From IMG/VR virus record IMGVR_UViG_3300028920_001945, positions 1 through 64,000 of that record: a DNA stretch of 64,000 nucleotides, one strand, 5' to 3'. Source of the stretch: a virus (Duplodnaviria > Heunggongvirae > Uroviricota > Caudoviricetes). The notes below the pieces were generated by a model, which ran no database searches, was not told the DNA's origin, and saw nothing but the letters and a program-made list of their open reading frames with translations. Shown one piece after another: positions 7,617 to 61,140 of this stretch (within the stretch, counting starts at the first letter, position 1; the number at the start of each line of letters is the position of its first letter). The translations under genes were made by a program, and so were the position numbers.

Positions 7617-7619
7617 GCA

Positions 7620-7934
7620 GTGGTTGGTGTAATGAGAGGCATTGTAGTCTGTGGAGCTACAGGAGAAGGGTGCAAATCCCTCACCCTGCATTTAAGGAGT
7701 GAAATAAATATGGAAGCATATGATGTTATCGAATTGTCTCTCGGTGAGAAGACAGAAGGAGATAAAATTGTCTTCAAGAGTATAGAAGACATGGAGCAGG
7801 CGTATAAGGACATCGACAATGGCAAAAATATTTATGTCAGAAAAGATGGACTTGTAACTAAAATACTTAATCAGATGGTTACCAACAAAATATATGATGG
7901 TAGCATAAGATTAAGTGCAAAAACAGATGAATAA
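7620..7934 (+). CDS. hypothetical protein (true start possibly at ATG 7710)
   Basis: The 5' 90 nt form an anomalously GC-rich segment. An internal ATG at 7710 has an AAGGAG SD 9 nt upstream. Confidence 0.45.
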   Translation: MVGVMRGIVVCGATGEGCKSLTLHLRSEINMEAYDVIELSLGEKTEGDKIVFKSIEDMEQAYKDIDNGKNIYVRKDGLVTKILNQMVTNKIYDGSIRLSAKTDE

Positions 7935-11706: not shown

Positions 11707-11913
11707 GAGTCCACGAACAATACTAAGAAGCCATGTGCTTGTGGATTGATTTGGTAGAAATTTTGCAATGCCATGTGCTGCAGACCCGCATGGGTTCAAT
11801 TCCCATGAATGATGGAGGTAAAATCTCCATCTAAAGGGTATTTAGGTTTAATAAATAAAAAATAAAGGAGAAAAAGAAATGAAAGAAAATATATATAAAG
11901 GAGGCAAGAGTTT

Positions 11914-12582
11914 ATGAAAGAGCTCGACGACAAAATGTTTGGTGACATACTAGCAAATAGTGGGTCACAATATTTCTTCCATAAGGAAGACACAGGAGAA
12001 GTAACATTAGTATTTAAGTCTGGGATTGTAAAGGTTGAACCTGGTGAAGAAGATTCAGCAGGTAGAATCTGGAGTCCTAAACTTACAGATGCTAATGGCA
12101 ATCCATTATTGGATTGGAATGGAAATCCCAAAGAACCTTGGTCTAAATTTGAAGCAGAGGTTCTTATAGAAGGAGCACCAAATATCTATAGTTTCTCTGG
12201 AGAGAAATCATCTGTCCTTAGAAACTTTATAATGGCCATGAAAAAAGAAGGTATTTCTAATGATGAATTACCGGGAACTATCTGGTCAATAGATAGAATT
12301 GGTAAATGGGATTGGAATATAAAGTATTTAGGAAGAGAGGAGCAAGACTCCTCTTCTTCTTCAGTTTCAGAACCTAAAGAAGAGAATCCAGAAATTAAAA
12401 AGATACAGGAAGCTCTACAGGTTAAAAAAGATCAGTCTTCAGATGGAATACCTGAGAATGACCTTATAGGTTATATATCATTTATTCTACATAAAAAGTC
12501 AGATGAAGTTAAGGATATGATGCCAGAGCTCATAGATAAAGGACTTTTAAAGAAAGAGAATAATTTGATCTATATACAATGA
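11914..12582 (+). CDS. hypothetical protein (first gene of replication module)
   Basis: Strong AAAGGAGG SD. 222 aa with a Ser-rich acidic linker. Confidence 0.5.
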   Translation: MKELDDKMFGDILANSGSQYFFHKEDTGEVTLVFKSGIVKVEPGEEDSAGRIWSPKLTDANGNPLLDWNGNPKEPWSKFEAEVLIEGAPNIYSFSGEKSSVLRNFIMAMKKEGISNDELPGTIWSIDRIGKWDWNIKYLGREEQDSSSSSVSEPKEENPEIKKIQEALQVKKDQSSDGIPENDLIGYISFILHKKSDEVKDMMPELIDKGLLKKENNLIYIQ

Positions 12583-12593
12583 GGTGATTCATA

Positions 12594-13496
12594 ATGGTTA
12601 CAATCAGATGTCATCATGACGCTGACGGTATAACTACTGGATACTTTACAGCATATGGAGTACCAGGAGCAAAATTAGAAATCTGGGATGGAAAGTTTGG
12701 TGATACTACAGGTCTCAAAGAAGGAGACTATATGGTGGACATGAGACCAATTCAGAATATGAAGGGTCTTAATGTAATAGATCATCATGGTCCTCATAGA
12801 GAGGATAGAAAATATAATCTTATTATAGATGAAGTTCCAGCTAGTCTAATTGCTTGGAGAGAATTCAAGGATGATATACCAAAAGCAGAGTGGTGGAAAT
12901 TAGCAATAGGTCTAATGGGAGATGGACAACCGGAACTTATACCAACAGAAGTATTTGACTCATGTCCTCAGCTCTTAACTAAAATAAAGACAAGTAGTTA
13001 TTCAAGTTATGGTAAGTGGAAGATAGGATATTATCCTGTCTATAAGTTGCTATCATCATACGTAAATTCTTTTTTAAGAATTGGAAAGCACGATGAAGCA
13101 ATCAATTTAATATCTTATAGTCAGAATCCTATAAACATATTACATTCTAGTAAGGCTATAGTAGCTAAAATAGAAGTAAAGAAAGATTTTGAAAATATTG
13201 TTAAAACTTGCGATAGCTATCAATTTGAAAATCTAGCTGTATTTATTTTTAATTCAGATTTTAGGATGACTGGTTATGTTGCTTCAGCATTGCAAGATTC
13301 TGTGGAGGGTAAACCCATTATAGCGATTAATAGAAAGGATGGGTCAGGTTCTCTAAGAGGAGACTTAGCATATTACTGGAGAGACAAACTTAAACATCTA
13401 GAATATATTACGGTAGATGGACATCCAGGATTCTGTGGATTAACCTGTACAGCAAATCCAGATACATTCATTGAGGACTTGATTAAGTTATTATGA
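12594..13496 (+). CDS. DHH-family phosphoesterase (RecJ/Cdc45-like nuclease)
   Basis: Motif I CHHDADGIT, DHH motif IDHHGPH and spacing typical of the RecJ/Cdc45/GAN core. Confidence 0.7.
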   Translation: MVTIRCHHDADGITTGYFTAYGVPGAKLEIWDGKFGDTTGLKEGDYMVDMRPIQNMKGLNVIDHHGPHREDRKYNLIIDEVPASLIAWREFKDDIPKAEWWKLAIGLMGDGQPELIPTEVFDSCPQLLTKIKTSSYSSYGKWKIGYYPVYKLLSSYVNSFLRIGKHDEAINLISYSQNPINILHSSKAIVAKIEVKKDFENIVKTCDSYQFENLAVFIFNSDFRMTGYVASALQDSVEGKPIIAINRKDGSGSLRGDLAYYWRDKLKHLEYITVDGHPGFCGLTCTANPDTFIEDLIKLL

Positions 13497-14536
13497 GGAT
13501 TAAGGAATTATTCTATGACAACATCGGAATCGCACGAGCTGTTATTGAAAGCGATAGCGGAGCTGAGTATTGCACGAGCGTGGACAGTGAACTGTTTCGT
13601 TCTTGGTGTAGCTGCCCCTACTATGTATTCAATAACTCAAATTGTAAACACATAATTCACTTAATGAATAATTTGGAATATGATAAAATGGCTAAGAAAG
13701 ATAATTTAAAATTTGTAGCAACTGGTAGTAAAACAATTGATGAATTACTGGGTGGAGGAATTCCATACGGTATAGTTACTGCTATATTTGGTGAACCAAC
13801 TTCTGGAAAGACCATGTTTGGTAAACAGATGGGATTAGTTAATATTGCTGAGACAGGTAAGAAAACTATCCTTATAGAAACAGAAGGTCTTAGAGATTAT
13901 GATACTAAGTTACTACTCTATAGATTTATGAATAGATGGAACTTAGATAAGAAAACTGTTGATGATAACTTTATCATTAAACATACTCTAGGAGATGTGC
14001 AGTTACAATCAATTCAAAAACTACTTCAGATGTTTGGATATATGGCTACCTTTGATATATCTAAAAATGGTAAGTATTCTGTTAAGTTTCAAAACTGTAC
14101 TCCCAGTATTAAGGATAAGGAATTAGAAGATACCGGTATGATTGTTCTGGATAGTCTCACTAAACCCATAAAGGATTCAGTAGGATCAGAAACCCAGAAT
14201 CTACCTGCAAGAGCTCAGTTAACTGAACGATTGTTCGGTAAATTATATCATACTGCCATGATACATAACATAGCTATCTTGGTAATTCATCATGCATCCA
14301 TTAATCCCATGATGCCCTTTGGTAGAGACTTAGGAAAACCCTATGGAGGTAATCCAGTCTTATATAATTCAAAGTATGCTATGGAATTTATAGATGCACC
14401 CAATAAAGTCAAGAATGAAACTGGATGGGGAGAGGAAGCTAGAAGAGTAAAGCTTCTACGTAGACCTGATGAACCCTATACAGGAGAACTCTTTCCAATA
14501 AGACTTAAAAAAGATTGGGGATATTGTGAAGAGTGA
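13493..14536 (+). CDS. RecA/RadA-superfamily ATPase with N-terminal SWIM-type zinc finger
   Basis: CSCPYYVFNNSNCKH (CxCx10CxH), Walker A GEPTSGKT and Walker B IVLDSLT. Confidence 0.65.
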   Translation: MRIKELFYDNIGIARAVIESDSGAEYCTSVDSELFRSWCSCPYYVFNNSNCKHIIHLMNNLEYDKMAKKDNLKFVATGSKTIDELLGGGIPYGIVTAIFGEPTSGKTMFGKQMGLVNIAETGKKTILIETEGLRDYDTKLLLYRFMNRWNLDKKTVDDNFIIKHTLGDVQLQSIQKLLQMFGYMATFDISKNGKYSVKFQNCTPSIKDKELEDTGMIVLDSLTKPIKDSVGSETQNLPARAQLTERLFGKLYHTAMIHNIAILVIHHASINPMMPFGRDLGKPYGGNPVLYNSKYAMEFIDAPNKVKNETGWGEEARRVKLLRRPDEPYTGELFPIRLKKDWGYCEE

Positions 14537-14783
14537 TGTGATGACTATAGAAAACATAGCTAGAGCACTTGCAACTCTAATTAGGTCAGGTTACTCACCA
14601 AATAATATAACATTAGATCCTAATATAGTTGCAGATTTATTTAGTAAAGAAGTTATCTTAAAGGATGGAAATAAGGTAATGATGTCCATGGAAGAATACC
14701 ATGAGTATGTATTAAATTTTAATCCTCCAGATAAAGACAATCTGGAGGAATTTAATAATAAGAAAATGGTGTTAGAGTTATGA
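14526..14783 (+). CDS. hypothetical protein
   Basis: 85 aa. Ends KKMVLEL with an ATGA overlap. Confidence 0.45.
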   Translation: MKSDVMTIENIARALATLIRSGYSPNNITLDPNIVADLFSKEVILKDGNKVMMSMEEYHEYVLNFNPPDKDNLEEFNNKKMVLEL

Positions 14784-15133
14784 ACTATACATATAGTAAT
14801 AATACATCTAATATTAGTTGGACATCCACTACATCAACTAGCGATGGTACATATTGGGAATATAAACCTAAGAAATATAAGGATTGGTCATACAATAGAT
14901 TTAAAGAATGGGAAATATATCCTTGGAGACCATCTAAAGAAGATAGAGGTCATGGAAAATCAGTAGATCCAAGAGAAATATTTAATGAAGTTACAGCTAT
15001 AAAGACTAAGGATGGAGAGAATCTAGATTTAACTTATGGGCAAATCTATGAGATAGAAAAGATGACTGGTAAATCCATAGAAGAATTAACTGAAGAAGAA
15101 ATCAAAGAACAACTTATGGTATTGGAATTATAA
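14780..15133 (+). CDS. hypothetical protein
   Basis: 117 aa. Ends LMVLEL. Confidence 0.45.
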   Translation: MNYTYSNNTSNISWTSTTSTSDGTYWEYKPKKYKDWSYNRFKEWEIYPWRPSKEDRGHGKSVDPREIFNEVTAIKTKDGENLDLTYGQIYEIEKMTGKSIEELTEEEIKEQLMVLEL

Positions 15134-15348
15134 TGTTAGGTGAATGTAAACCAAACGATTCTATAACAGCAGATGATTGCAATAGATTCAAGGCAGATAA
15201 ATTCAAGGTTAGTTTTAATTTAATGAATGGAATGGAAGTAGAATTATCCTTTGAAGAGTATATATTCTATGTACTCATGTATCAAAGATTACCTTCAGAA
15301 TGTAATATAGATGAATTCAAAGAATATAAATTGATGTGTGAAATATGA
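15133..15348 (+). CDS. hypothetical protein
   Basis: 71 aa. Confidence 0.4.
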   Translation: MLGECKPNDSITADDCNRFKADKFKVSFNLMNGMEVELSFEEYIFYVLMYQRLPSECNIDEFKEYKLMCEI

Positions 15349-15614
15349 AATTAAATAAAGGACCAGATGGATTTCTTTACGAAGCTACTTTACAAGATGG
15401 AGAAGAAATAGTAGTATTTCCGAGAGCAACAATACCATCCTGGTATCAATCAAATGATAGTAAGAAGGAAGAACAACGCACTTATGCATATTTATTATTT
15501 AGGAATAGTAAAAATGTATATAAAATTACTAATGAAGACTTTGAACAACTCAAAGATGATGAATTTGAATCTGAACAAGACTTAGTGGATAAACTATTGG
15601 TGGCTAAAATATGA
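15345..15614 (+). CDS. hypothetical protein
   Basis: 89 aa. Confidence 0.45.
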   Translation: MKLNKGPDGFLYEATLQDGEEIVVFPRATIPSWYQSNDSKKEEQRTYAYLLFRNSKNVYKITNEDFEQLKDDEFESEQDLVDKLLVAKI

Positions 15615-15746
15615 GAATCAGATGGATATTTGATAAACATAAAAAGACTATCAGTGATATATTGGTGAGATGGAAATGTTAATAGTATGTCATAATTGTG
15701 GTTGGAAAAGAGATACATCAGAACTGGATAAACATAATATAACTAA

Positions 15747-16076
15747 TTGCCCAAGATGTGGAGCACCATTATTTGGAGATGGAATTGGATTAGCATGGGT
15801 AAAGTAAGAGCAGATTATATTAAGAATAACTGTAAAGAAATATACCATTATTATTCAAATGAAGTAACAACTGATTTTGAATCCAACAAACAATTATTGA
15901 TGAAAGTAACTGATGTTAAGAATAAACGATTAAAAAACAGAATGGCTGGATATCTTGTTATTATAAAGAAAAAGGAAGGAAGAATAATTATACCTCCCAA
16001 GAAAGAGAAGAAGGCTAGAACTAAAAAGGAAAGAAAGAAAAATAGAAAAAGACAAGATAAAAAATGGATAGGATAA
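15747..16076 (+). CDS. hypothetical highly basic protein (K/R-rich tail)
   Basis: C-terminal KKKEGRIIIPPKKEKKARTKKERKKNRKRQDKK. The start may instead be the internal ATG near 15797. Confidence 0.4.
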   Translation: MPKMWSTIIWRWNWISMGKVRADYIKNNCKEIYHYYSNEVTTDFESNKQLLMKVTDVKNKRLKNRMAGYLVIIKKKEGRIIIPPKKEKKARTKKERKKNRKRQDKKWIG

Positions 16077-16077
16077 T

Positions 16078-16275
16078 ATGAGTTTATTTAAAAAAGAAAT
16101 GAGAGATGAAGAATACTTTTATAATATGATAAGTGAATTAACTCCTCTAGAGTTAATGGCTTTGACTAGAGCTTTCGTAAAATTTATGGGAGAATTTAAA
16201 AATATTTCTGCTGACCTATCTCAGTATAATAAAGTAGAAACTGATGATGGGAAGCCTAGAAAAGAGATATCCTAA
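16078..16275 (+). CDS. hypothetical protein
   Basis: 65 aa. Confidence 0.4.
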   Translation: MSLFKKEMRDEEYFYNMISELTPLELMALTRAFVKFMGEFKNISADLSQYNKVETDDGKPRKEIS

Positions 16276-16904
16276 TGATATTAGTAGATTCTAGAGAACC
16301 TAATAAGATTATAAAATCTCTTAAAGATAAAAAGTTAGAAGTAAAAGAAGATTTTCTTGAAGTAGGAGATTATCTCTTAGACAATGGATATGCTATTGAA
16401 AGAAAAGATAAAGATTTAATAGCATCAATACAATCGAATAGATTATATGAACAGTTGAATAATTTATGTAAGTTTGAACATCCAGTATTATGTATAACAT
16501 TACAAGACTTATGGAAGACATTCTACTTTAGTAGAAGTAGATATATACATAGAAGTTATCTGGGTACATTAACCACTTTAACGACTAAATACCCAAACTT
16601 GAAGATTATGTTTCTTCAGGACGAAGAGGAATTTATAAGTTATATAGTTAGTCTAGATAAAAAAATCCATGAGAGTGGAAATAAAGAACGTCCAGCTCCA
16701 ATAATGAGGAGAGCCAAATCTATTAAGACCAGAAAAGAAAATGCCCTGACGGCCATAGAAGGGGTCTCTGTGGGCAAATCTAAGAAGCTATTAGAAGAGT
16801 TTGGATCTATAAGAAATATAGCTAACGCTAAATTAGCTGACCTACAGAAAGTAGATGGAGTAGGAAAGAAATTAGCAGAAAAAATAATGGAGACACTGAA
16901 CTAA
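16275..16904 (+). CDS. XPF/Hef/Mus81-family ERCC4 nuclease with C-terminal (HhH)2 (short archaeal-type XPF architecture)
   Basis: ILVDSRE, GDYLL and ERKDKD catalytic motifs. C-terminal tandem helix-hairpin-helix (GVSVGKSKKLL...VDGVGKKLAEKI). Confidence 0.8.
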   Translation: MILVDSREPNKIIKSLKDKKLEVKEDFLEVGDYLLDNGYAIERKDKDLIASIQSNRLYEQLNNLCKFEHPVLCITLQDLWKTFYFSRSRYIHRSYLGTLTTLTTKYPNLKIMFLQDEEEFISYIVSLDKKIHESGNKERPAPIMRRAKSIKTRKENALTAIEGVSVGKSKKLLEEFGSIRNIANAKLADLQKVDGVGKKLAEKIMETLN

Positions 16905-17239
16905 TGAGTATATTTAAAATATATAAACTATCAGCAACTAAGTACTTAGATAAATATTATTGTCAGATAAACAAAAGCTATGAATTAGATTTTTATACTG
17001 ACAGTAAACATTTAGCTAAATATCAGAAGGATGTAGAAGAAGGTAAGTCTAAATATGTTACTTTCTTGAATAAGGAAGATAATTTAAGAGAACAGGGATT
17101 AACTGTTCTAAGAAGTGAAATAAATAGCTTCACTTGGAAACAAGATTATAATAGTTTCTATGAAGCTTATAGAACACCAGAACAAAAACTAGCAAAGGAA
17201 AAAGAATTGCTAGCTGATGGCTGGATAATAAAGGAATAA
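16904..17239 (+). CDS. hypothetical protein
   Basis: 111 aa. Confidence 0.45.
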   Translation: MSIFKIYKLSATKYLDKYYCQINKSYELDFYTDSKHLAKYQKDVEEGKSKYVTFLNKEDNLREQGLTVLRSEINSFTWKQDYNSFYEAYRTPEQKLAKEKELLADGWIIKE

Positions 17240-17256
17240 AAAAGGAGGAAAAACAT

Positions 17257-17790
17257 ATGACAAAATATAACATAAACGAACTACTCGAAAAGAAAAAAGA
17301 ACTCGAAGAACAAATTTTTGAAAAAGTAAGCTCCGTGAATGGAGAGGAACTTAAGTACAGAAAAGATGTAACTATTGATCATACAAGAGAAGATAGAACA
17401 TCTGAATATGTACCTAGACCAAAACAAAATATAGACCAATTCACTCAAGAGACATTCGGTCTTATAGATGAATTAGTTAAGGTCAAAACTGCTATTCAAA
17501 AATACAATGCTCAAAAAGTATTGGGTGAGCTACAGAAAAGAGAAGCAGTAAGAATCAAACATAAATATCTTGATTCTATAAAACACAATCTACCAGAAAA
17601 CAAAGAACACAAGAGACAAGTTACAAGGCAAGATAAAGATGGTGTTGCTTTAGAGACAACTGAAATTACAGTAGAACCTATGTTCGAGAAAAAAGACGTT
17701 GAGAAACGTATGAACGAATTTGCAGCTCAAGAGAGAAAAATAAATACTGATATTCAGAAACAAAACCTAAACGCTAAGATACAACTTTAG
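17257..17790 (+). CDS. hypothetical coiled-coil protein
   Basis: 177 aa with a strong AAAAGGAGG SD. Confidence 0.45.
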   Translation: MTKYNINELLEKKKELEEQIFEKVSSVNGEELKYRKDVTIDHTREDRTSEYVPRPKQNIDQFTQETFGLIDELVKVKTAIQKYNAQKVLGELQKREAVRIKHKYLDSIKHNLPENKEHKRQVTRQDKDGVALETTEITVEPMFEKKDVEKRMNEFAAQERKINTDIQKQNLNAKIQL

Positions 17791-17890
17791 ACTCACTTCG
17801 GTGAGAGATAGCAGGGGCAAAGGTGAGAGGTTTGAGAAGTTTAGCCTCTTTAAATAACTAAGCTTCATCCGTTGCATGGAATGCAACCAA

Positions 17891-17962
17891 ATAGATATAG
17901 GGTAATGGTTATCCCACAAGCCTCTGGAGCTTGATATCTCGGTTCGAATCCGAGTGTCTTTT
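17891..17962 (+). tRNA. tRNA-Gln(CUG)-like gene
   Basis: Hand-folded cloverleaf. Acceptor ATAGATA/TGTCTTT has one T-T mismatch. D-arm GGGT-AATGGTTA-TCCC (A14, G18G19, A21). Perfect anticodon stem CAAGC/GCTTG with loop CTCTGGA (U33, anticodon CTG). Variable loop ATAT. T-arm CTCGG-TTCGAAT-CCGAG. No encoded CCA. Confidence 0.55.
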
Positions 17963-18246
17963 GGATTGTATACCAACCTAGAGCTACTTAGACAACATAG
18001 AACTAAGTACCAAATTGACAATTCACTACAAAAACAATTTCACTAACTCACTACTAACAGATTTACTATTTACAGTTTATCCACCGACCTTTGACTGCTA
18101 TCTTAAACTTTATGCAATCGGGATGTAAAGAGCTAAAGGATAAGCCTCCAGGCTCATAAGATGCTATAATTGCCTATGTGTGGCCACCACAAAGTTAGGA
18201 TTCCCTACAAGGCCCTAATTGATGCATCTGAGAAACCTGGGTGTTT

Positions 18247-18271
18247 GCAGGTTCAATTCCTGTCATCCCCA
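18247..18271 (+). other. tRNA 3'-half-like element (T-arm plus acceptor 3' strand); 5' half not contiguous
   Basis: GCAGG-TTCAATT-CCTGT T-arm followed by CATCCCC-A. A complementary CGGGATG lies about 130 nt upstream at 18119-18125. Confidence 0.35.
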
Positions 18272-18346
18272 TTAAAACCCAGAAAAAATATCAAAAAGAA
18301 AAATGTAAAATGAATGTAATAAAAATATAAAGAAGGAGGAAAAAAT

Positions 18347-19015
18347 ATGACAAATATAAATATATTAGGTACTATAGCAATTGTTCTTGCTCTTATAGCA
18401 GTAGCTCTTGGAGGCTATGCAATATACGATAAGAAAGGAGAACAAGGAGAAGTAGGACCTATAGGATTAGAAGGTCCAATGGGACCAATGGGTCCACAAG
18501 GAGAGCAAGGTCCACCTGGAGAAGATGGCCTTGATGGAATTGATGGAGTCGATGGTGCAGTAGGACCACCTGGACCTAAAGGTAATAAAGGTAATCAGGG
18601 TAATCAAGGAAATCCTGGAGAGCAAGGCCCACAGGGAGAACCTGGAATTGATGGTGTAGATTTAGAACCTAATGATGCACCAGTAATAACTGTAGATGAT
18701 ACAGCTAGTTATGTAGAAGGCTGTGGAAAATATGATGATTATTGGTTCTCTATAGCTATAACTACAACTGATATAGAAGACGATTCCAGAAAAATCTGTT
18801 TATATTACAGATGGGATGAAATTGATCCATGGAATCTAGAGAAATCTTGGCCATTCTTAACTAATGCAGACATCATAACTGATTGGGAAGAGAATAAAGG
18901 TAATGAATATGGAGAAAATACAGAAACTCTTTATTGGTTAGTAGAAGTAATGGATGGAGAGAATCTAGTTTATCAGCAAGGTGAAACATCCTTAACAAAA
19001 CCTTTGTGTCCATAA
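18347..19015 (+). CDS. collagen-like triple-helix repeat protein with N-terminal membrane anchor
   Basis: About 35 uninterrupted G-X-Y triplets ([31 protein letters not shown]...). N-terminal hydrophobic helix. C-terminal about 110-aa globular domain. Confidence 0.85.
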
Positions 19016-19021
19016 AGAAAT

Positions 19022-19047
19022 AGGGAATAATCCCTTCTTTTTTCTTT
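19022..19047 (+). terminator. intrinsic terminator
   Basis: AGGGA-ATAA-TCCCT hairpin followed by TCTTTTTTCTTT, 7 nt after the collagen-like stop. Confidence 0.6.
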
Positions 19048-19091
19048 ACATGATTGTATGTTTAAATTAATTAAATAATATGGAATAATTT

Positions 19092-19400
19092 ATGACTGAA
19101 AAAAAATTAGAAACTCTAGAAGAAATTCAGGATGAAATGAAAACACTATCAAGAAAGAGAGACCTTGCTATCATTGAAGCAGATAAATATCAAAAATCAT
19201 TACAAGAATTATCAGTAAAATTCCTTGAAATACATCCGGACTTTATTAAGATTAAATGCTTAACCTGTGGTGGTAAGGGTTATATAGCTGCAGATGATGG
19301 CAAAAAGAAAATTTGTATGAATCCAAACTTCCCACTATTATCATGTGGTGGTAAGGGCTATATTATGCTAGAAAAATATAAGGAAGAAAAAAAGGAATAG
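19092..19400 (+). CDS. hypothetical protein with DnaJ-type CxxCxGxG zinc-finger-like repeats
   Basis: CLTCGGKGYI and LSCGGKGYI repeats. Confidence 0.45.
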   Translation: MTEKKLETLEEIQDEMKTLSRKRDLAIIEADKYQKSLQELSVKFLEIHPDFIKIKCLTCGGKGYIAADDGKKKICMNPNFPLLSCGGKGYIMLEKYKEEKKE

Positions 19401-19405
19401 ATATA

Positions 19406-20077
19406 ATGGCAAGAGAAACAGTAAACCCTTTTAATATGAAGAAGTCAGAACTTCTTGAATTATTTAAGGGTAGGTGTAAACATGGACATACATATGCTGA
19501 ACATCCAGCATGTTATGTTAAGGAAAAAGAAGAGCAGATAAAGATAGGTTATCTAGATATAGAGACCTCAAATCTGAAAGCTAACTTTGGTATAATGTTA
19601 AGTTATGCTATCAAGGTAAGAGGAAAAGATAAAATATATTATGATACCATAACCAAAAAAGAGATAGATAGTAAGACTCTAGATAAGAGATTAGTAAAGC
19701 AATGTATCGAAGACATGAAAAAATTTGATGTTGTAATGGGATATTACTCAACTAAATTTGATATACCATTCTTGAGAACTAGAGCTATGTATTGGGATTT
19801 AGAGTTTCCATTATATGGTGAATTACAACACAAAGATATCTGGTATATGGTAAGAGCTAAGATGTGTCTTCATAGTAATAGACTCGAATCAGCCTGTAAG
19901 CATCTTGGTATAGAAGGAAAAACACATCTAGATGGTTATTATTGGATAAAGGCTTTATCTGGAGATAAGAAAGCTTTAAGCTATATATTGGACCATAATA
20001 TAAAGGATGTAGAAATATTAGAAAAGTTACATGATAGAGTAAAGGACTTTGTCAGAGATACAACAAGATCTTTATAG
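19406..20077 (+). CDS. DEDD-type 3'-5' exonuclease (RNase H-like fold)
   Basis: Exo I YLDIETS, Exo II YYSTKFDIPFL, Exo III-like H-x4-D (HNIKDVE). Confidence 0.6.
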   Translation: MARETVNPFNMKKSELLELFKGRCKHGHTYAEHPACYVKEKEEQIKIGYLDIETSNLKANFGIMLSYAIKVRGKDKIYYDTITKKEIDSKTLDKRLVKQCIEDMKKFDVVMGYYSTKFDIPFLRTRAMYWDLEFPLYGELQHKDIWYMVRAKMCLHSNRLESACKHLGIEGKTHLDGYYWIKALSGDKKALSYILDHNIKDVEILEKLHDRVKDFVRDTTRSL

Positions 20078-20086
20078 GTAGATAAA

Positions 20087-20296
20087 ATGAAAAAATTTCC
20101 CAGAGAAAAATATACCTTACAAGCATATGAAAATGAGAGATACTCCCTAGTAATAACTAAAGATGAAAAAAACATAAAGACTAATAAAATTGAGTATAGT
20201 GATAACTGGGAAGAACTATATGCAAAAGCAAAAAAGGAATCTGAAAAGGGAAATGAATGTGAAATTTGGGAGTTGAAATTTGAATTCTTTCCATAA
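20087..20296 (+). CDS. hypothetical protein
   Basis: 69 aa. Confidence 0.4.
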   Translation: MKKFPREKYTLQAYENERYSLVITKDEKNIKTNKIEYSDNWEELYAKAKKESEKGNECEIWELKFEFFP

Positions 20297-20600
20297 AATA
20301 AAAAATAAACTTCCATTTTTGAATTCTATAATATCCTATATAATTAATATAAATAATAAAAAGATTCCGAAATGTAACTATGAAGGAAAATGTAGGGGTA
20401 AGGCCTTTGTAGAAGTATATCCTTATACTGATACAGCAATTGACGAGGATACTGGAGATATATATAAAACTCCCTATATATTTAGTGGCACTTGGTCTTA
20501 TCTGTGTTTTAAACACTTCATTAAATTTAAATTTGAGAGAGATAAATTTCTTTGGAGAGAAGCAAGAGAATTAAAGGAATTGGAGAAAGAAGATGAATAG
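20280..20600 (+). CDS. hypothetical protein
   Basis: 106 aa. Confidence 0.4.
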   Translation: MNSFHKIKNKLPFLNSIISYIININNKKIPKCNYEGKCRGKAFVEVYPYTDTAIDEDTGDIYKTPYIFSGTWSYLCFKHFIKFKFERDKFLWREARELKELEKEDE

Positions 20601-20898
20601 AGAAGAAAGACCTCCTTGGAATCATATAGTAATAGAAGGATTCTGTTTGAGAGGATTATCTGAAAAAAGACATAAATATAATTATAAGGTTATAGACTCT
20701 AAAGAATTTAAAACAGAAAGAATTGATAATCCACATTATGATCCAAATTATAAAATGCCTAGAAGACCATCTTACTGCAAAAGAAAAATATGTTATACTT
20801 GCTTAGTAAATAATTGTCCTCATTTTGGATATTCAGAATGTGAGAAAGATGAAGAAGAAGAAATAATGAGATTTATAGCTGATATGTATGATGATTGA
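20593..20898 (+). CDS. hypothetical Cys-rich protein
   Basis: CYTCLVNNCPHFGYSEC cluster. 101 aa. Confidence 0.4.
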   Translation: MNREERPPWNHIVIEGFCLRGLSEKRHKYNYKVIDSKEFKTERIDNPHYDPNYKMPRRPSYCKRKICYTCLVNNCPHFGYSECEKDEEEEIMRFIADMYDD

Positions 20899-21796
20899 TA
20901 TGAGAGATTTGTTAGATGTTCCATTTGGAACTAGATTTGTTGGTTACTATGGTAAAGGATATGGTAATCAAATACCAGTATCAAATGGAAAACAAATAAG
21001 AGAAATAGTTGAAGAACATCTTGGATTAGATAATATAGCTATATCTATAAGTACCTATAAAAATAGAAGACCTCATCTATTGTTTCTACCATTTGACTTT
21101 GATTCAGATAACTTAAAAGATGCATGGAAGGATGCTGTAAAATTATATAAGCATGTAATTAAGAGTGGTTATGGAGCTTATCTAGTTTTTTCAGGAAGAA
21201 AAGGATTTCATGTATTGATTACAACCAAACCTAATGTCTATACAAAAAGACAAGTAAGGTCAGCTCAAAAGATGTTTAAAGGAATGATGAACCTTAAGAC
21301 ATTAGATGAACAAATATTTGGGGATGTTAGAAGATTAATGAGGATACCTTGGACATATAATATATATGGTAGTTTATGTAAAGTGATAGCAAGTAATGAA
21401 GGGATAGAACTAGATTTAGATGAGATATATATAGATAACATAACGGATAAGGATATTGAGTTTGACTTTAAACCAGATAGAACTTATCACGATTATCCTT
21501 GTATAGAATCTCTTGTTAGGTCTGATCCTGAACCAAGACATTTAATTAGATTTACATTTGTAGTCCTTCGATTATCAGAAGGATACGATATTGAAGATAT
21601 ACTGGATGAAATAGAATCCTTCGATTGGGTCGATTTTGACGAAGATTATACGAGAAAACAAATAGAGCATATTATAGGTAGAGGATATGTACCTCCATCT
21701 TGCAATACTCTAAGAGACTTAGGGTATTGTAATGTAGAGGATTGTCCTTATACTAATGATATGAAAACTAATTTAGAGGAGTTAGGAATAAAATGA
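20888..21796 (+). CDS. archaeo-eukaryotic primase (AEP/PrimPol small-subunit-like)
   Basis: Motif I FDFDSD, motif II FSGRKGFHVLI (sGxxGxH) and motif III RLMRIPWTYN. Confidence 0.8.
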   Translation: MMIDMRDLLDVPFGTRFVGYYGKGYGNQIPVSNGKQIREIVEEHLGLDNIAISISTYKNRRPHLLFLPFDFDSDNLKDAWKDAVKLYKHVIKSGYGAYLVFSGRKGFHVLITTKPNVYTKRQVRSAQKMFKGMMNLKTLDEQIFGDVRRLMRIPWTYNIYGSLCKVIASNEGIELDLDEIYIDNITDKDIEFDFKPDRTYHDYPCIESLVRSDPEPRHLIRFTFVVLRLSEGYDIEDILDEIESFDWVDFDEDYTRKQIEHIIGRGYVPPSCNTLRDLGYCNVEDCPYTNDMKTNLEELGIK

Positions 21797-22053
21797 AAGA
21801 TGAAATAAGATTAGAAAGAACCTGTTTTGCATGTCCAGAACAATATGAGGCTTTTATAGGAAAAAAACAAGTAGGATATCTCAGATTAAGACATGGATAC
21901 TTCTATGTCTCTTATCCAGATTGTAATGATAATATAATATATGATTCATATACAAAGGGAGATGGGATATTTACTGAAGATGAAAGAGATTACTTTTTAA
22001 ACCAAGCCAAAAATGCAATTTATTTAAAATTAAAGGAGGAAAAGAATGAGTGA
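21793..22053 (+). CDS. hypothetical protein
   Basis: 86 aa, coupled to the primase stop. Confidence 0.45.
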   Translation: MKDEIRLERTCFACPEQYEAFIGKKQVGYLRLRHGYFYVSYPDCNDNIIYDSYTKGDGIFTEDERDYFLNQAKNAIYLKLKEEKNE

Positions 22054-22183
22054 ATATTGTGAGATATGCGGAGATGAATTACAAACAGAGGAAGAAATAT
22101 TATCTGGAGTTTGTGATAATTGCTCCTCTACACTAATGAATGATGAATATGAAGAAGAGCAACTATTTAATGAGGACCTATAG
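22046..22183 (+). CDS. zinc-ribbon mini-protein (45 aa), absent from the ORF track
   Basis: ATG 22046 overlaps the upstream stop. CEICG...CDNC. TAG at 22181-22183 abuts the next ATG. Confidence 0.35.
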   Translation: MSEYCEICGDELQTEEEILSGVCDNCSSTLMNDEYEEEQLFNEDL

Positions 22184-22432
22184 ATGAATATACCTTGGGA
22201 CGCAGTAATTATAATAGCAGTTGGAACACCACTAGGAATATGGTGGTATTTAGCACAAGTTAAGATACTTTGGAATTCAGTTCAAACCTTTAAAGCAGTT
22301 AAAAAATCTATGATGATGGGTCAATCCCCAGAAGAAATTAAAGAAGTTTTAGGGAGATTATTGGGGCATAGCCAACAAAGATCAAAGGAAAAGAAAGAGA
22401 AGAAAGAAGAAGATTGGAAAATGTATCAGTGA
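22184..22432 (+). CDS. hypothetical small membrane protein
   Basis: N-terminal TM helix and a basic KEKKEKKEE tail. Confidence 0.4.
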   Translation: MNIPWDAVIIIAVGTPLGIWWYLAQVKILWNSVQTFKAVKKSMMMGQSPEEIKEVLGRLLGHSQQRSKEKKEKKEEDWKMYQ

Positions 22433-22436
22433 TAAT

Positions 22437-24959
22437 ATGAAATTAGGATTTATACCTGATATGATGTCAGAAGATTTTGATGATGATGCTTTAGTATATA
22501 GTAATGATGAAGAATTCTATTATACTAAAAACTTTCCGAAAGATTTGCTTAAGGATATAGAAGAAAAACAGATTCAGATATATACTGGTTATTATGATCC
22601 TCCCACAAAAGGAACTAAGGACAGCCCAACTATATATTTATTAGGTAGAGGAAAGACTAGTGGAAAGTTTAAGCTTAAAATTCAAGGTTTCTATCCATAC
22701 TGTTATGTTAAATCTGATGAAGGAACATACAAGGATTACTTGGGAGAAACAGTAGAGAAATTAATCTTTAAAGGTATGCATCCAAGCAGAGTTGCCAACT
22801 TTAGAGACTTAAGAAGAAAGAAAGGATTTCCACTACCATATGAAGCCGATATATTATTTGTTAGACGATTCTTAATAGATATGTATGATAACTTTAAATC
22901 AAAGGAAATGATAGAACCTAAAATAGCTATCCTAGATATTGAGAATGACCATCCAGTATCCGATAGAATTATTGCTTATTCGATTAATGATCCAGATGAA
23001 GATATAGTATATGAAAGTAAATTTGATACAGAATATCCATCTGAGATGTCACTTAATATAATTGATATATTGGATAAATTTGATATTGTTACGGGATGGA
23101 ATATTAACTTTGATATAAAGGAAATAGAAAAAGACTTAGAAGAAATTAATAAATTTCTTGATTATGCAAGGTCAGGTTATGAATATAGTAAAGATAAATA
23201 TATAGAAGATTTCATTAAAACTAAAAGAAGATTTCCAGTAAATGAAATAAGATACATATTTGATATGCTTATAGATAAAAACTATCTTAAGATAGAGAAT
23301 GATGTTATTAAATTAGGATCAAGAAAGTTTTTACATGAAATAGAAAAACATATAGCGATATTGGATGCCCTTACAGTATCAAAAAAGATGTATGCTGTAG
23401 AGATAAGAGGTAAATGGAATCTAGGAAATGTAGGAACACAACTAGTAGGTTTAGATAAAATTCATCTAGGAGCTAAGAATATTAGAGATTTAGATGAAGA
23501 AGAATTAAAGGAATATAACATTAGAGATGTTATAATACCAGAATTAATTGATGAACTCTTAGGAGGAATTCAAGCTCATGTTATATTAAGTTGGGCTCTA
23601 CAAGCTATATTAAGAGATGTAGTTATTACGGCAGTAGTCAATGATATAGCATTACTGAGAGCCTATCATAAAGAAAGTATAGTATTACCCTCAAGACATT
23701 GGGATGAGACTGGAACAGAAGTTAAATATAAAGCAGCTGAACCTGATGCAAGACCTGGAGTATATGATGGATTAATTGTAACTGATTTAGTACATGCTTA
23801 TCCTTGGGCTGTTATATCCAAGAATGTATCTCCAGAAACTAAAGATGAAAGTGGAGAAAATATAGTTACCTATATAGGTAGAGAAGAAATTCCAAAGACA
23901 TTAAGATTTAATAATAATAGAAGTATATTTATAGAAACTCTCAAATCCATTATGGATGAGAGAAGTAAGATTAAAAAGAAATTGAAGAAGACCAATAAAG
24001 AGTCTGATGAATATAAAAGACTTAAGTCTATAGACTTTGCTCTAAAGACTCAAGCAGCTGCTTTCTCTCATGGGATATTTGGATGGGCTAATTCAAGAAT
24101 GAGAGATTATGAAGTAGCAGATGCAATTACAGGAATCGTAAGAGAATTAATTAATACCATTAAGGGAGCATGTGATAATATAGATAGACAATGGGTCTAT
24201 GTACATACAGATTCTTGTTTTGTTAATGCTCCTAAAGAAGAGATGGATAAAGTAATGGATTATCTTAATGATGTTATTACTAATTATAGTAAAGGTTCTA
24301 AGGTAATGCCTACCTTAGATGTTAAGGGTTATTATCCAATTGCCTATATACATTCTCCTGCAAGGAATGTATTAGTTCCAGAAGGAGTATCAGTTGATGA
24401 TGATGAACACTGGGAAGTAACTGGCTGTAATTTTATGAGGTCAGAAGTACCAGAAGAACTAGCTAATATAGAGATAGAATTAATAAAGAGGAAAATGAAA
24501 GGAGAACCATTAGATAATATTAAAAAGTATCTAAAGAAGAGAGTAAAGAAAATAGTAGAGATCGATAGTACTGAATTAGGATTAATAAAACCTCTGACAA
24601 AATCCATAAATGAATATGGAAGAGAATTAAAGGATGGCTCTTATGGAGGATATCCTGGTCATATAAATGCTCTCTTAAGAGCAAGAGATGAATTTGATTA
24701 TGATGTTGATGTCGGAGAAAAATTTATGGTATTACCCATATTAACAGATGAAACAACTGGAGTTAGAAAGATAAGAAGAAAGAAGGTTGATATTGCATTT
24801 CCAATAGAGACAGGATTACCAGAAAATTATATGATTGACTATGAATATTATCTAAGAAGTAATCTGTGGGGTAAAATCCATAATCTATTTGATCTTAAAC
24901 CAAGACAATTAGAAAAGGAAATAGTTGATGATGAGATTAAAACCTTATTTGAAATATAA
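22437..24959 (+). CDS. family-B DNA polymerase (divergent motifs)
   Basis: Exo I ILDIEND, Exo II GWNINFDIKE, Exo III YNIRD. Polymerase motif A-like DLVHAYPWA, motif B-like KTQAAAFSHGIFG, motif C VYVHTDSCF. 840 aa. Confidence 0.85.
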   Translation: MKLGFIPDMMSEDFDDDALVYSNDEEFYYTKNFPKDLLKDIEEKQIQIYTGYYDPPTKGTKDSPTIYLLGRGKTSGKFKLKIQGFYPYCYVKSDEGTYKDYLGETVEKLIFKGMHPSRVANFRDLRRKKGFPLPYEADILFVRRFLIDMYDNFKSKEMIEPKIAILDIENDHPVSDRIIAYSINDPDEDIVYESKFDTEYPSEMSLNIIDILDKFDIVTGWNINFDIKEIEKDLEEINKFLDYARSGYEYSKDKYIEDFIKTKRRFPVNEIRYIFDMLIDKNYLKIENDVIKLGSRKFLHEIEKHIAILDALTVSKKMYAVEIRGKWNLGNVGTQLVGLDKIHLGAKNIRDLDEEELKEYNIRDVIIPELIDELLGGIQAHVILSWALQAILRDVVITAVVNDIALLRAYHKESIVLPSRHWDETGTEVKYKAAEPDARPGVYDGLIVTDLVHAYPWAVISKNVSPETKDESGENIVTYIGREEIPKTLRFNNNRSIFIETLKSIMDERSKIKKKLKKTNKESDEYKRLKSIDFALKTQAAAFSHGIFGWANSRMRDYEVADAITGIVRELINTIKGACDNIDRQWVYVHTDSCFVNAPKEEMDKVMDYLNDVITNYSKGSKVMPTLDVKGYYPIAYIHSPARNVLVPEGVSVDDDEHWEVTGCNFMRSEVPEELANIEIELIKRKMKGEPLDNIKKYLKKRVKKIVEIDSTELGLIKPLTKSINEYGRELKDGSYGGYPGHINALLRARDEFDYDVDVGEKFMVLPILTDETTGVRKIRRKKVDIAFPIETGLPENYMIDYEYYLRSNLWGKIHNLFDLKPRQLEKEIVDDEIKTLFEI

Positions 24960-24976: not shown

Positions 24977-25504
24977 ATGTCTGATATAATGGAAAGTGAA
25001 AAGATTGGTGTTAGTGAAGTACTCACTATAGATGATGCCAAAAAGTTAAAGGGAGTAACAGGAGATAGAGCTAAAGAATTTGAGCAAGAAATATCAAGTA
25101 AACAAGACTTGTTATTCAAGGATATCTATTGTGTTACATTTGGATGGAAAGTCCAAGATGATGGCTCAAGAAAATTAGTATCCAAGATGCCTAATGGAAA
25201 AATATTATTTCCAGATAGGACAGAAGACATGCAAGAAATTGAACCTGGTACACCTTATATTTGTTTGATATACGAAAGAGAAAGAGAGGCATTTGCTAAA
25301 GTAGTATGTGAAGAATACCAACCTAAAATATTTGTGCCTTCATCCAAGATACCTCATATGGTATGGAGAGATGAAAAGGGAGTTATAAGAAGAAAAGCTC
25401 CATATGGAAATTCCTATGAAGACAGGATAGTATCCGCAGTAAAGGAAATGGAGAAGTTAGGTTTTCCATCCATAAAAATAATATTTAGAAAAAATCAAAG
25501 ATAA
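24977..25504 (+). CDS. hypothetical protein
   Basis: 175 aa with an AAAGGAGG SD. Confidence 0.45.
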   Translation: MSDIMESEKIGVSEVLTIDDAKKLKGVTGDRAKEFEQEISSKQDLLFKDIYCVTFGWKVQDDGSRKLVSKMPNGKILFPDRTEDMQEIEPGTPYICLIYEREREAFAKVVCEEYQPKIFVPSSKIPHMVWRDEKGVIRRKAPYGNSYEDRIVSAVKEMEKLGFPSIKIIFRKNQR

Positions 25505-39003: not shown

Positions 39004-39487
39004 ACAAGACAACATAAATACAGATTTATTATTTCCTGGAAAGAGATGCTTTCTGGGTAGTGATGAAAAAACTCTAAAGAAATATATATTAGAAGATTTA
39101 GATGAGACATTTGCTAAAGAAGTGCAACCTGGGGATATTATAATAGCAAATAAGAACTTTGGATGTGGAAGCTCAAGAGAACATCCAGTATTAGGCTTAA
39201 AGGCAGTTGGAATTGTAGCCGTTATTGCAGAAAGTTTTGCTAGAATATTTTTTAGATGTTCTATTAATAATGGATTAACCATAATAGAATCTCCAGAAAT
39301 GGTAAGAAGATACAAAAATGGAGATAAAGTTAGTGTATATGAGAGAATTGGAATAGTAAGAATTGGTGATAATGTTTATCATATTCCAAAAATGAATAAT
39401 GAAATATTGGAAATAAAGAAAAATGGCGGACTACTTGAATACACAAGAAAAAAACTCAGAGAAAAAAACATTCAAAATAAAGCCTGA
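38984..39487 (+). CDS. LeuD-like aconitase-family small subunit (no large subunit in window)
   Basis: ANKNFGCGSSREHP swivel-domain signature. 167 aa. Confidence 0.85.
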   Translation: MRVWRYKQDNINTDLLFPGKRCFLGSDEKTLKKYILEDLDETFAKEVQPGDIIIANKNFGCGSSREHPVLGLKAVGIVAVIAESFARIFFRCSINNGLTIIESPEMVRRYKNGDKVSVYERIGIVRIGDNVYHIPKMNNEILEIKKNGGLLEYTRKKLREKNIQNKA

Positions 39488-53124: not shown

Positions 53125-53136
53125 GAGGTAATTAAT

Positions 53137-54126: not shown

Positions 54127-54221
54127 GTGATTATGTGGAATTTCACCGAATTGGTTGGTATTGTAGTAACTGTAATATAAATATATATAAAGATATATAT
54201 GGAGATATTAGGGGATAAGAA

Positions 54222-61137: not shown

Positions 61138-61140
61138 ATA

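Follow-up and report, generated by a model that had tools for sequence, protein, structure and literature searches.

The sequence considered here comprises positions 1 to 64,000 of the IMG/VR record IMGVR_UViG_3300028920_001945, a virus assigned to the Caudoviricetes, and this 64-kb stretch is referred to below as the window. Its GC content is about 30%, all convincing genes lie on the plus strand (to which all window coordinates refer), coding coverage is 91%, and 57 of the 119 gene junctions overlap or abut; many of the open reading frames (ORFs) are small and have no known function. Between positions 11914 and 24959 lies a DNA replication and repair module encoding a DHH-type phosphoesterase, a RadA-like ATPase, a short XPF/Hef-type nuclease, a stand-alone exonuclease, a primase and a DNA polymerase of family B (PolB). 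A preliminary description, made from the sequence alone, had set an archaeal virus against a Firmicute phage as the owner of this module. The module also holds a gene that was absent from the list given in that description, encoding a homologue of the ribosomal protein eS17.

The replication module and its eS17 gene

The eS17 gene (15795-16076) encodes a protein of 93 amino acids (aa). Its product scores 36.2 bits against Pfam PF00833 (cut-off 22.8) and 62.4 bits (2e-17) against the NCBIfam model S17e (NF002242), which is under the equivalog cut-off of 72. A phmmer search of the PDB aligned residues 1-64 end to end with eS17 of the Pyrococcus/Thermococcus 30S subunit (2e-13), followed by eukaryotic eS17. 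An AlphaFold2 (AF2) model, built from an alignment of five viral sequences, had a predicted local distance difference test score (pLDDT) of 84.6, and all 50 matches listed by Foldseek for this model in the PDB were chains from ribosome structures, either archaeal (30S) or eukaryotic (40S/80S). Against the archaeal eS17 chains, the target-normalised template modelling (TM) score was 0.77-0.87 and the root-mean-square deviation (rmsd) 1.1-3.2 Å. Viral and cellular eS17 have in common M1, R5, K10, D/F27-28, NK31-32, K44 and NRxAGY48-53. In the viral protein, the N-terminal 64 residues form the eS17 domain and are followed by a Lys/Arg-rich tail of about 30 residues (IIPPKKEKKARTKKERKKNRKR...), which is found in the viral copies only and is absent from the cellular ones.

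An independent gene caller predicted the same 93-aa gene in L001, a twin contig that is 99.3% identical to the window. In an exhaustive HMMER search of 1.84 billion representative sequences, the best 15 or so eS17 clusters (at 50% identity) were 82-94 aa in length, long-tailed and known from metagenomes only. The cluster contexts that were checked were viral and syntenic, with the order GP88, a DHH-sized gene, a Rad51-like gene, eS17 and HhH. Because the best clusters are long-tailed and metagenomic and the checked contexts are syntenic viral contigs, eS17 appears to be an old gene of this viral lineage. The nearest named cellular eS17 proteins, from Jordarchaeum, a Promethearchaeota metagenome-assembled genome (MAG) and Thermoplasmata HGW-1, are 33-46% identical over about 60 residues; this is too little signal, and an assignment of the host lineage from eS17 was therefore rejected.

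To our knowledge, eS17 occurs only in archaea and eukaryotes. Since the family is restricted to these two domains and the gene is conserved across the viral lineage, the host is likely to have an archaeal-type ribosome; the retention of eS17 with its conserved residues throughout a diverged viral lineage would make sense only with such a ribosome. A eukaryotic host was ruled out by the tailed-virus structural module described below and by the polycistronic, Shine-Dalgarno-led gene layout. We found no report of a viral eS17 in the literature; subscription journals were outside our coverage, and an earlier description is possible.

The eS17 region is also the place where the window and L001 differ. 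Of the 77 differences between the two, 76 fall within 15371-15998 (about 630 bp), a stretch that takes in the N-terminal two-thirds of eS17 and the two small ORFs before it, and a single difference is found in the rest of the overlap (10.5 kb, PolB included). The two eS17 alleles are 80% identical at the aa level, with 19 non-synonymous and 11 synonymous codon changes. The patch looks like a recombination swap of the eS17 allele and, because the differences are packed into it, suggests that eS17 may be exchanged among co-occurring strains. Several small ORFs lie between the RadA-like and eS17 genes. One of them (15670-15807), found by the ORF scan, overlaps the start of eS17 and would encode a zinc-ribbon mini-protein of 43-45 aa (CHNC...CPRC); it was called as a 43-aa gene in L001.

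The primase gene (20888-21796) encodes a single-chain archaeo-eukaryotic primase (AEP) of 302 aa, in which a PriS-like catalytic domain (residues ~58-175) is followed by a PriL-type C-terminal domain (~200-290). The match to Pfam DNA_primase_S is just above the cut-off (27.9 versus 26.8 bits; 3.4e-6), and the NCBIfam models gave 6e-11 for PriL (residues 215-290) and 3e-4 for PriS. The motifs DFD70, SGRKGFH102-108 and D146/R149 are intact. Thus, the PriS-like AEP recognised in the preliminary description is indeed present, and it is in fact a single-chain PriS-PriL fusion, because residues 204-290 match PriL at 6e-11 and the PriL-type domain contains four cysteines (205, 272, 281 and 286), which are putative Fe-S ligands. 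In a set of 50,697 isolate virus genomes, overwhelmingly those of bacterial phages, the primase matched only HCTV-1, HVTV-1, HCTV-16, HVTV-2, HCTV-5 and Methanobacterium virus PhiF1. As far as we know, PriL is known only from archaea, eukaryotes and the viruses of both.

PolB (22437-24959) is a very divergent polymerase of 840 aa with its own exonuclease domain, scoring 2e-18 (66.9 bits) against Pfam DNA_pol_B and 1e-37 against PHROG_262. The residues of Exo I-III, namely D167/E169, F225/D226 and Y360/D364 (DxE, FD and YxxxD), and those of the polymerase motifs A (D450), B (K537...G546) and C (T591/D592) are invariant in 27 relatives, in agreement with its earlier classification as a divergent PolB. 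The wording of the polymerase motifs departs from the canonical one (DLxHAYPS, KxxAAAxSHG / SHGxFG and HTDS). The best PDB matches are PolB proteins of Thermococcales, and the best isolate match is Halorubrum tailed virus 25. Upstream of the primase gene, a further gene (19406-20077) encodes a stand-alone DEDDh 3'-5' exonuclease akin to the exonuclease domain of PolB. This protein matches Pfam RNase_H_2 (3e-14) and DNA_pol_B_exo1 (3e-6) as well as PHROG_403, 'DNA polymerase exonuclease subunit' (3e-25), contains the motifs DIETS, FDIPF and HNIKD, and is 59-81% identical in relatives.

A short structure-specific endonuclease of the XPF/Hef type (209 aa) is encoded at 16275-16904. It consists of ERCC4 (Pfam 1e-17, 64.8 bits) and a helix-hairpin-helix (HhH2) domain (HHH_5 2e-10, 41.6 bits) and lacks the N-terminal helicase domain of Hef; the NCBIfam model of the euryarchaeal Hef nuclease is matched in its C-terminal part only (model residues 573-775, 3e-35), and archaeal Xpf at 3e-20. 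The signature reads GDY31...ERKDKD42-47, with a spacing of x2 where the family signature GDxnERKx3D has x3. The protein is found in all related loci at 37-85% identity, and its only isolate match is the 'Hef and HNH endonuclease' of Halovirus HCTV-5. The preliminary description had assigned it the crenarchaeal architecture. The short ERCC4 plus HhH2 layout holds, but the Hef model scores best and a pattern search for the PCNA-binding motif Qxx[LIMV]xx[aromatic]2 gave no match in this protein, whose C-terminus is ...KIMETLN. No convincing PCNA-binding motif was found in PolB, XPF, the primase or the DHH protein.

The RadA-like protein (13493-14536) combines a SWIM zinc finger with a RadA/RadB/Rad51-type ATPase core, as had been noticed before. 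The finger (CSCPYYVFNNSNCKH, CxCx10CxH) is N-terminal and intact, Walker A (GEPTSGKT) starts at residue 100, and Walker B reads MIVLDS; the Pfam scores are 1e-11 for Rad51 (45 bits, cut-off 22) and 1.6e-4 for SWIM. It is present in all related loci (43-68% identity). With the NCBIfam models, it reached 3.5e-14 for RadB (53 bits versus a cut-off of 172) and 6e-14 for RadA (50-52 bits versus 259-361), with no score at the equivalog level, and it has the SWIM finger in the place of the N-terminal HhH domain of RadA. We regard it as a RadA/RadB-like paralogue.

The DHH/DHHA1-type protein (12594-13496; 300 aa) is RecJ-like and probably a single-stranded DNA (ssDNA) exonuclease. Its motifs HxDADG, VIDHH and GHPGF are conserved in five orthologues, and to this extent the RecJ-like DHH nuclease proposed earlier stands, but the family scores are weak or below threshold: 9e-5 for the recJ model TIGR00644 (20.9 bits versus a cut-off of 397), 2e-4 for PHROG_2484 (RecJ-like), and, for Pfam DHH, E = 0.048 or worse in two of the five orthologues, so that the family threshold was not reached. 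A search of the PDB with the family profile gave no sequence match, and the AF2 model from the single sequence (pLDDT 35) was unusable.

Two conserved proteins flank this set. The first gene of the module (11914-12582) encodes a protein of 222 aa, with orthologues before the DHH gene in the related contigs L005, L007, L008 and L013 and two conserved regions joined by an acidic, Ser-rich linker (EEQDSSSSS); it had no match in Pfam, PHROG, NCBIfam or the PDB, profile search included. Directly 3' of PolB in every relative is a gene for a 175-aa protein (24977-25504; 44-71% identity in L002-L008, L012 and L013), for which no family match was found and the PDB profile search was empty. The two proteins are candidates for the missing roles, e.g., ssDNA binding or processivity.

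Between the XPF and exonuclease genes are a tRNA-Gln gene with anticodon CUG (17891-17962; Rfam tRNA 55.8 bits, also found by ARAGORN) and a gene for a membrane-anchored collagen-repeat protein (18347-19015; Pfam Collagen 7e-15), which has an N-terminal hydrophobic segment and matches PHROG tail-fibre families through its repeats. The first acceptor pair of the tRNA-Gln is A1-U72. This is the pattern of archaeal tRNA-Gln, the bacterial one being U1-A72. The gap 3' of the tRNA (17964-18346, about 380 nt) contains no convincing ORF and no Rfam family at the gathering threshold.

Relatives and virion type

About 77 relatives of PolB were found, with 37-100% identity, all of them metagenomic and on contigs of up to 155 kb. 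The viral-contig relatives were recovered with a PolB alignment as the query; a single PolB protein as the query gave none. The lineage is set apart from ordinary archaeal PolB by a gap in E-value from 1e-92 to 1e-24. An identical PolB is on record on a contig of 115,760 bp, and the genome is therefore at least that long.

The module is syntenic in L002-L008, L012 and L013, of which seven are viral contigs from IMG/VR (69-155 kb; GC 31-43%) and two are long contigs from MAGs. The conserved order is the 222-aa protein, DHH, RadA, (eS17), XPF, exonuclease, primase, PolB, the 175-aa protein and two glycosyltransferase-like genes. Hydrothermal sediment of the Guaymas Basin, whose metagenomes are rich in archaea, is the source of the two most distant relatives. 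Some of the PolB relatives contain inteins, and in several relatives the module is interrupted by free-standing genes for LAGLIDADG endonucleases; one of the relatives has an anaerobic ribonucleotide reductase (RNR), NrdD, where the window has a class II enzyme (intein, LAGLIDADG and NrdD sites: P0061, P0064; L003 14836-16011; L012 13572-14537; L013 2930-3718; L008 18232-20328).

No capsid, portal or terminase gene was found within the 64-kb window. The record IMGVR_UViG_3300028920_000150 shares 82-97% nucleotide identity with the first 4 kb of the window and the region upstream of it, and this close relative carries a head-tail module on the opposite strand, about 22-31 kb before the window start. 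The genes of this module include those for TerL (PHROG_38, 4e-93), the portal (6e-34), the prohead protease (8e-16), the major head protein (2e-15) and proteins of the neck and tail. For the capsid protein of this relative, the best isolate matches are HRTV-BLv36, the 'HK97 gp5-like major capsid protein' of HFTV1, HRTV-29 and HRTV-4 (1e-21 to 7e-23), whereas the best bacterial phage, a Bacillus phage, reaches 1e-10 only. TerL gives no signal on the domain of the host, being about 26% identical both to Bacillus phages and to the archaeal virus ANMV-1. Judging from these genes, the virion is most probably head-tailed and of the HK97 type (Caudoviricetes). A check of the capsid type had been proposed in the preliminary description; in the close relative it is HK97-type, with haloarchaeal tailed viruses as the best match.

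Host and working of the module

Taken together, the data make it very probable that the window belongs to a large uncultivated archaeal tailed virus with a genome of at least about 115 kb, whose host is an archaeon living without oxygen. An archaeal virus is indicated by eS17, the PriS-PriL primase, the Hef/XPF nuclease, the RadA-type ATPase, the Aks-like enzymes and the best matches to archaeal viruses. The isolate best matches of PolB, XPF, the primase and the capsid protein are all archaeal tailed viruses. Archaeal NCBIfam models score best for XPF (Hef, Arch_Xpf), the RadA-like protein (RadA/RadB) and two products of the Leu/Aks-like cluster. In this cluster, a LeuB-like gene (36852-37904) for a homoisocitrate/isopropylmalate-dehydrogenase-like protein has AksF2_Meth/LEU3_arch as its best model, and a LeuA-like gene (37876-39003) for a homocitrate/isopropylmalate-synthase-like protein has LEU1_arch; they are followed by a gene for a LeuD/HacB-like small subunit (38984-39487) with a GCGSSREH motif. 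The homocitrate-synthase-like protein is 50-55% identical to MAG proteins of Thermoplasmata and Methanomassiliicoccales. No large subunit for the LeuD/HacB-like gene was seen in the cluster (36852-39487), which could function in the elongation of 2-oxoacid chains, as needed for making coenzyme B or lysine.

The expression signals, which had been described as bacterial in style, are weak evidence on the host. A Shine-Dalgarno core of at least 4 nt precedes 68% of the starts, compared with 21% of random positions; the strong Shine-Dalgarno sites pointed out earlier are thus real, and they are compatible with archaea. Hairpins followed by a T-run, also noted there, are modestly enriched (14 sites versus 7.1 ± 2.7 in shuffled sequences), and sigma-70-like sites are not enriched in the window (97 versus 104 ± 9.5 in shuffles). 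In many archaea, it is normal for internal cistrons to be translated from Shine-Dalgarno sites and for transcription to end at T-runs. It is for these reasons, the lack of sigma-70 enrichment and the occurrence of the other two signals in archaea, that we give the signals little weight. A search for an archaeal promoter in the regions upstream of the first module gene in four relatives revealed no motif that they share at one fixed position, and at 30% GC nothing can be learnt from TATA-like words.

Several observations weigh against an archaeal host or loosen the assignments on which it is based. The structural module was seen in a close relative and is lacking in the window itself. The class II RNR, GP88 and YopX best match bacterial phages, namely those of Moorella, Microcystis, Mycobacterium, Enterococcus, Fusobacterium and Vibrio (28-39% identity), and TerL best matches Bacillus phages (26%). 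A direct host link is absent and no integration site was seen. The bins of the relatives' MAGs disagree, being labelled Actinomycetota, Saccharibacteria, Gammaproteobacteria, Thermoprotei and Thermoplasmatales. RadA, the primase, PolB and eS17 all score under the NCBI equivalog cut-offs, i.e., they are divergent members of their families and not orthologues of the cellular proteins, and the DHH assignment is based on motifs and weak matches. Furthermore, cultured Methanomassiliicoccales, the order whose MAGs give homocitrate-synthase matches, have about 41-62% GC, compared with 30% in the virus. As regards the phage-like genes, RNR, GP88, YopX and TerL belong to the common pool of tailed viruses and form no Firmicute pattern. 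The MAG bins were rejected as a guide to the host because their labels are mutually inconsistent, which we attribute to mis-binning.

From what is known of the protein families, we infer a division of labour within the module. The single-chain PriS-PriL primase would make the primers, and PolB would copy the DNA and proofread, accompanied by the free-standing DEDDh exonuclease. The SWIM-RadA protein may drive strand exchange for recombination-dependent replication or repair, the short XPF/Hef protein may act as a dimer that cuts 3' flaps and forked or branched intermediates, and the RecJ-like DHH enzyme may trim 5' single strands in primer or flap removal or in end resection. Neither the window nor the 8 kb upstream of it revealed a gene for a helicase, clamp, clamp loader or DNA ligase. 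Because no viral helicase, clamp or clamp loader was found, the virus presumably uses the MCM, PCNA and RFC of its host. The viral eS17, with its basic tail, most likely enters the small ribosomal subunits of the host during infection, and eS17 and the tRNA-Gln may represent a parallel tuning of host translation. The dependence on host helicase and clamp, the incorporation of eS17 into ribosomes and the host lineage discussed below should likewise be read as predictions.

Three other explanations have to be weighed. The window might come from a large bacteriophage of a low-GC Firmicute or other anaerobe that has horizontally acquired archaeal-type replication genes and retained bacterial expression signals. 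Such a phage would account for the Shine-Dalgarno and T-run figures given above, for the presence of YopX, GP88, Dam, CspA, FeoA and HNH, for the best matches of RNR, GP88, YopX and TerL, and for the binning of relatives with Actinomycetota and Saccharibacteria. However, a bacterial ribosome offers no position for a conserved eS17, which is nevertheless retained in the top 15 or so clusters, with viral contexts wherever these were checked; every replication gene as well as the capsid protein best matches archaeal viruses or archaeal families. The bacterial-phage matches, 23-39% identical, are scattered over unrelated phyla and carry no Firmicute signal, sigma-70-like sites show no enrichment, archaea are also known to have Shine-Dalgarno sites and to terminate at T-runs, and the MAG bins contradict one another. 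We therefore consider a bacteriophage very improbable, and the Firmicute side of the preliminary description, with the phage-like genes matching phages of unrelated hosts at 28-39% identity and without sigma-70 enrichment, finds no consistent backing. Its archaeal side is borne out by eS17, the primase, XPF, RadA, the Aks-like enzymes and the isolate matches. In the best-match taxonomy that it had called for, PolB, the primase and XPF point to archaeal viruses, but RNR points to bacterial phages.

Even less credible is that the DNA is not viral at all and represents a piece of archaeal chromosome, a plasmid or another large extrachromosomal element. The many metabolic and glycan genes, the ribosomal protein gene, the location of one relative inside a Thermoplasmatales MAG and the missing capsid, portal and terminase genes would fit such an element, but the relative that overlaps the first 4 kb of the window and its upstream region at 82-97% identity has a full head-tail module on the same contig, and the relatives are viral contigs of IMG/VR. 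Cellular housekeeping genes other than eS17 are missing from the window, and its one-strand layout, tight packing (57 of 119 junctions) and small ORFs are typical of viruses. A third explanation accepts the archaeal virus and differs on the module, taking RadA, XPF, DHH and DEDDh as tools of take-over or counter-defence that break down the DNA of the host or process modified DNA of the virus itself. The separation of the nucleases from the primase and PolB by unrelated genes (eS17, the tRNA and the collagen-like protein) and the neighbouring Dam, HNH and QueC-type DNA-modification genes speak for it. Against this, the gene order from DHH to PolB is conserved down to 38% PolB identity, the same families (Hef/XPF, RadA, RecJ/GAN) are generally known to act in cells at forks and in recombinational repair, and PhiF1, too, pairs a primase-like gene with an ERCC4 nuclease beside its polymerase. 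We judge this use of the module to be unlikely, if slightly less so than the phage.

Within the archaea, the signals on the host lineage are weak and point to Thermoplasmatota or Asgard. The former are suggested by the homocitrate-synthase matches, by one relative in a Thermoplasmatales bin and by one of the three nearest named eS17 proteins; the latter by the two nearest of all (from Jordarchaeum and a Promethearchaeota MAG, the cluster of the MAG protein being 46% identical to the viral one), and low GC fits as well. The methanogen host, e.g., from the Methanobacteriales, considered in the preliminary description was not borne out by these signals. It is possible, though somewhat doubtful as a whole, that the window represents an undescribed lineage of large (70-155 kb) tailed viruses of sediment archaea (e.g., Thermoplasmatota/Asgard), in which the tailed eS17 enters the host small subunit and favours viral translation; since no viral helicase was seen in the 64 kb, the RecJ/GAN-like DHH protein could recruit host MCM-GINS.

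Other genes of the window and relation to known viruses

Outside the module, the LeuA/B/D-like genes and QueC mentioned in the preliminary description are present, with AksF2_Meth and LEU1_arch as best models for the LeuB-like and LeuA-like proteins. QueC occurs twice, the family search having revealed two tandem QueC-like PP-loop ATPase genes (39423-40700), which may belong to a 7-deazaguanine DNA-modification pathway like that of Druskaviridae (PMC8651126). GP88 and a class II RNR are encoded in the window, and CspA, YopX, FeoA, Dam, HNH and the heptose genes were all found there, as described. The heptose genes belong to a sugar-modification cluster of about 17 kb (46376-63382). Its heptose-nucleotide-type pathway comprises GmhA-like SIS proteins, a GHMP kinase, a nucleotidyltransferase and a PfkB kinase; the cluster also encodes two epimerase/dehydratases, sulfotransferases, methyltransferases, a transaldolase and a transketolase fragment, together with a B12-binding radical SAM enzyme and two further radical SAM/SPASM enzymes. 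An unusual gene in this cluster (48731-49924) fuses a circularly arranged GTPase of the RsgA/MMR_HSR1 type to a SIS sugar isomerase and is followed by a GNAT acetyltransferase gene.

In the first part of the window are genes for an Rnl1-like RNA ligase (1726-2874; PHROG_562) and for a membrane-anchored SPFH/Band-7 (flotillin-like) protein of 510 aa with a long coiled coil (7955-9487). Immediately upstream of the window, L009 (2919-6170) encodes an ATPase of the MoxR type (PHROG_1297, 2e-64) and a protein of the DUF2201/VWA type. The 207-nt gap before the first module gene contains a tRNA-like fragment (11744-11806; Rfam tRNA 13.4 bits) with D, anticodon and T arms and no acceptor stem, flanked by the repeated GCCATGTGCT at 11730 and 11770; it is overlapped by a sub-threshold match to the 'freshwater-2' RNA motif (11789-11881; 28.9 bits versus a gathering score of 49.9). 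A tRNA-His predicted by ARAGORN (7617-7690) is doubtful, as it scores 21.9 bits in Rfam (gathering threshold 29), has an irregular acceptor stem and overlaps the start of the ORF 7620-7934.

Three points of the preliminary description do not hold. The tRNA intron question raised there has no object, since ARAGORN with introns allowed found no intron-containing tRNA in the window. The TFIIS-type zinc ribbon was not recovered, no window ORF of at least 40 aa matching TFIIS_C (PF01096) at E ≤ 0.001; the only zinc-ribbon family match is Ogr/Delta-like (43065-43259), at 23.9 bits below the cut-off of 26.3 and outside the interval. In place of more than 15 CPxCG mini-proteins, the window has 12 ORFs of up to 120 aa with two CxxC pairs, eight of which contain CPxC; two of the 12 are inside 11914-24959.

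It is already known that archaeal tailed viruses can encode archaeal-type replication genes of their own, as exemplified by Druskaviridae, magroviruses and PhiF1. The magroviruses of marine group II, which Philosof et al. reportedly described in 2017, are said to be uncultivated head-tailed viruses of 65-100 kb whose archaeal-type replication set is almost complete, PolB, an AEP primase and RadA included; they reportedly come from marine surface water and carry clamp, clamp loader, ligase and helicase genes. The window lacks these last four genes, the comparison with magroviruses being by description only. Methanobacterium virus PhiF1 (host Methanothermobacter; 74 kb) has an ORF annotated as hypothetical, ORF55 (MK994522.1, 53324-54890 region), that matches the window primase (8e-6, 25% identity), adjoins the ERCC4-type nuclease ORF54 and lies near polymerase genes and an anaerobic RNR. 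However, the polymerase genes of PhiF1 are of the DnaE type and not PolB, and no eS17, RadA or DHH is annotated in that region.

Like the virus described here, the Druskaviridae (HVTV-1, HCTV-1 and HCTV-5; about 102-104 kb) are head-tailed, archaeal and have genomes of about 100 kb, and they and their like provide the best isolate matches of the primase (HCTV-1, HVTV-1, HCTV-16, HVTV-2 and HCTV-5) and XPF (HCTV-5). They encode a preQ0/G+ (QueC-type) DNA-modification pathway (PMC8651126), and the window has its two QueC-like genes. However, the identity is 24-38% over parts of the proteins only, no eS17 has been reported there, and the hosts of Druskaviridae are aerobic high-GC halophiles, whereas the GC content of the present lineage is 30-43% and its source is anoxic sediments. 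This virus does not belong to the Druskaviridae.

Ribosomal protein genes have been found in other archaeal tailed viruses. Hafunaviridae (HRTV-24, HSTV-3 and HJTV-3, as well as HRTV-15) carry eL21 (PMC8651126) and the Bathyarchaeia virus Kunpengvirus carries bL19, before which eL21 was the only ribosomal protein known from archaeal viruses (PMC10541130); S17e is missing from the 14 ribosomal proteins listed for viruses by Mizuno et al. 2019 (PMC6375957). In the present case, the protein is eS17, which belongs to the small subunit and has an added basic tail. Kunpengvirus also has an exonuclease separate from PolB, of the DEDDy type, whereas that of the window is DEDDh. Compared with the cellular Hef/XPF, RadA/RadB, PriS and PriL, PolB, GAN/RecJ and eS17, the viral proteins have the same domain families and catalytic motifs, but they all score under the NCBI equivalog cut-offs, XPF is without a helicase domain, SWIM replaces the HhH domain of RadA, PriS and PriL form one chain of 302 aa, and eS17 has its basic tail. 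New are the distinct PolB lineage, the genome sizes of 70-155 kb, the set of SWIM-RadA, short XPF, DHH and fused primase, and eS17.

If the virus is archaeal, every gene of the window is to be read against archaeal replication partners, ribosomes and, for the 17-kb sugar cluster, cell-surface glycans. The median genome of archaeal tailed viruses is 54 kb (PMC10541130), compared with 70-155 kb in this lineage. Among the archaeal tailed viruses, the finding would thus add a lineage with genomes roughly two to three times as large as usual, and it comes from anoxic sediments, for which very few archaeal viruses are known. If the viral eS17 does enter host ribosomes, it would be the first archaeal/eukaryotic-type small-subunit ribosomal protein from any virus of prokaryotes, and, if the host is an Asgard archaeon, the lineage would bear on the interplay of viruses with eukaryote-like information-processing machinery.

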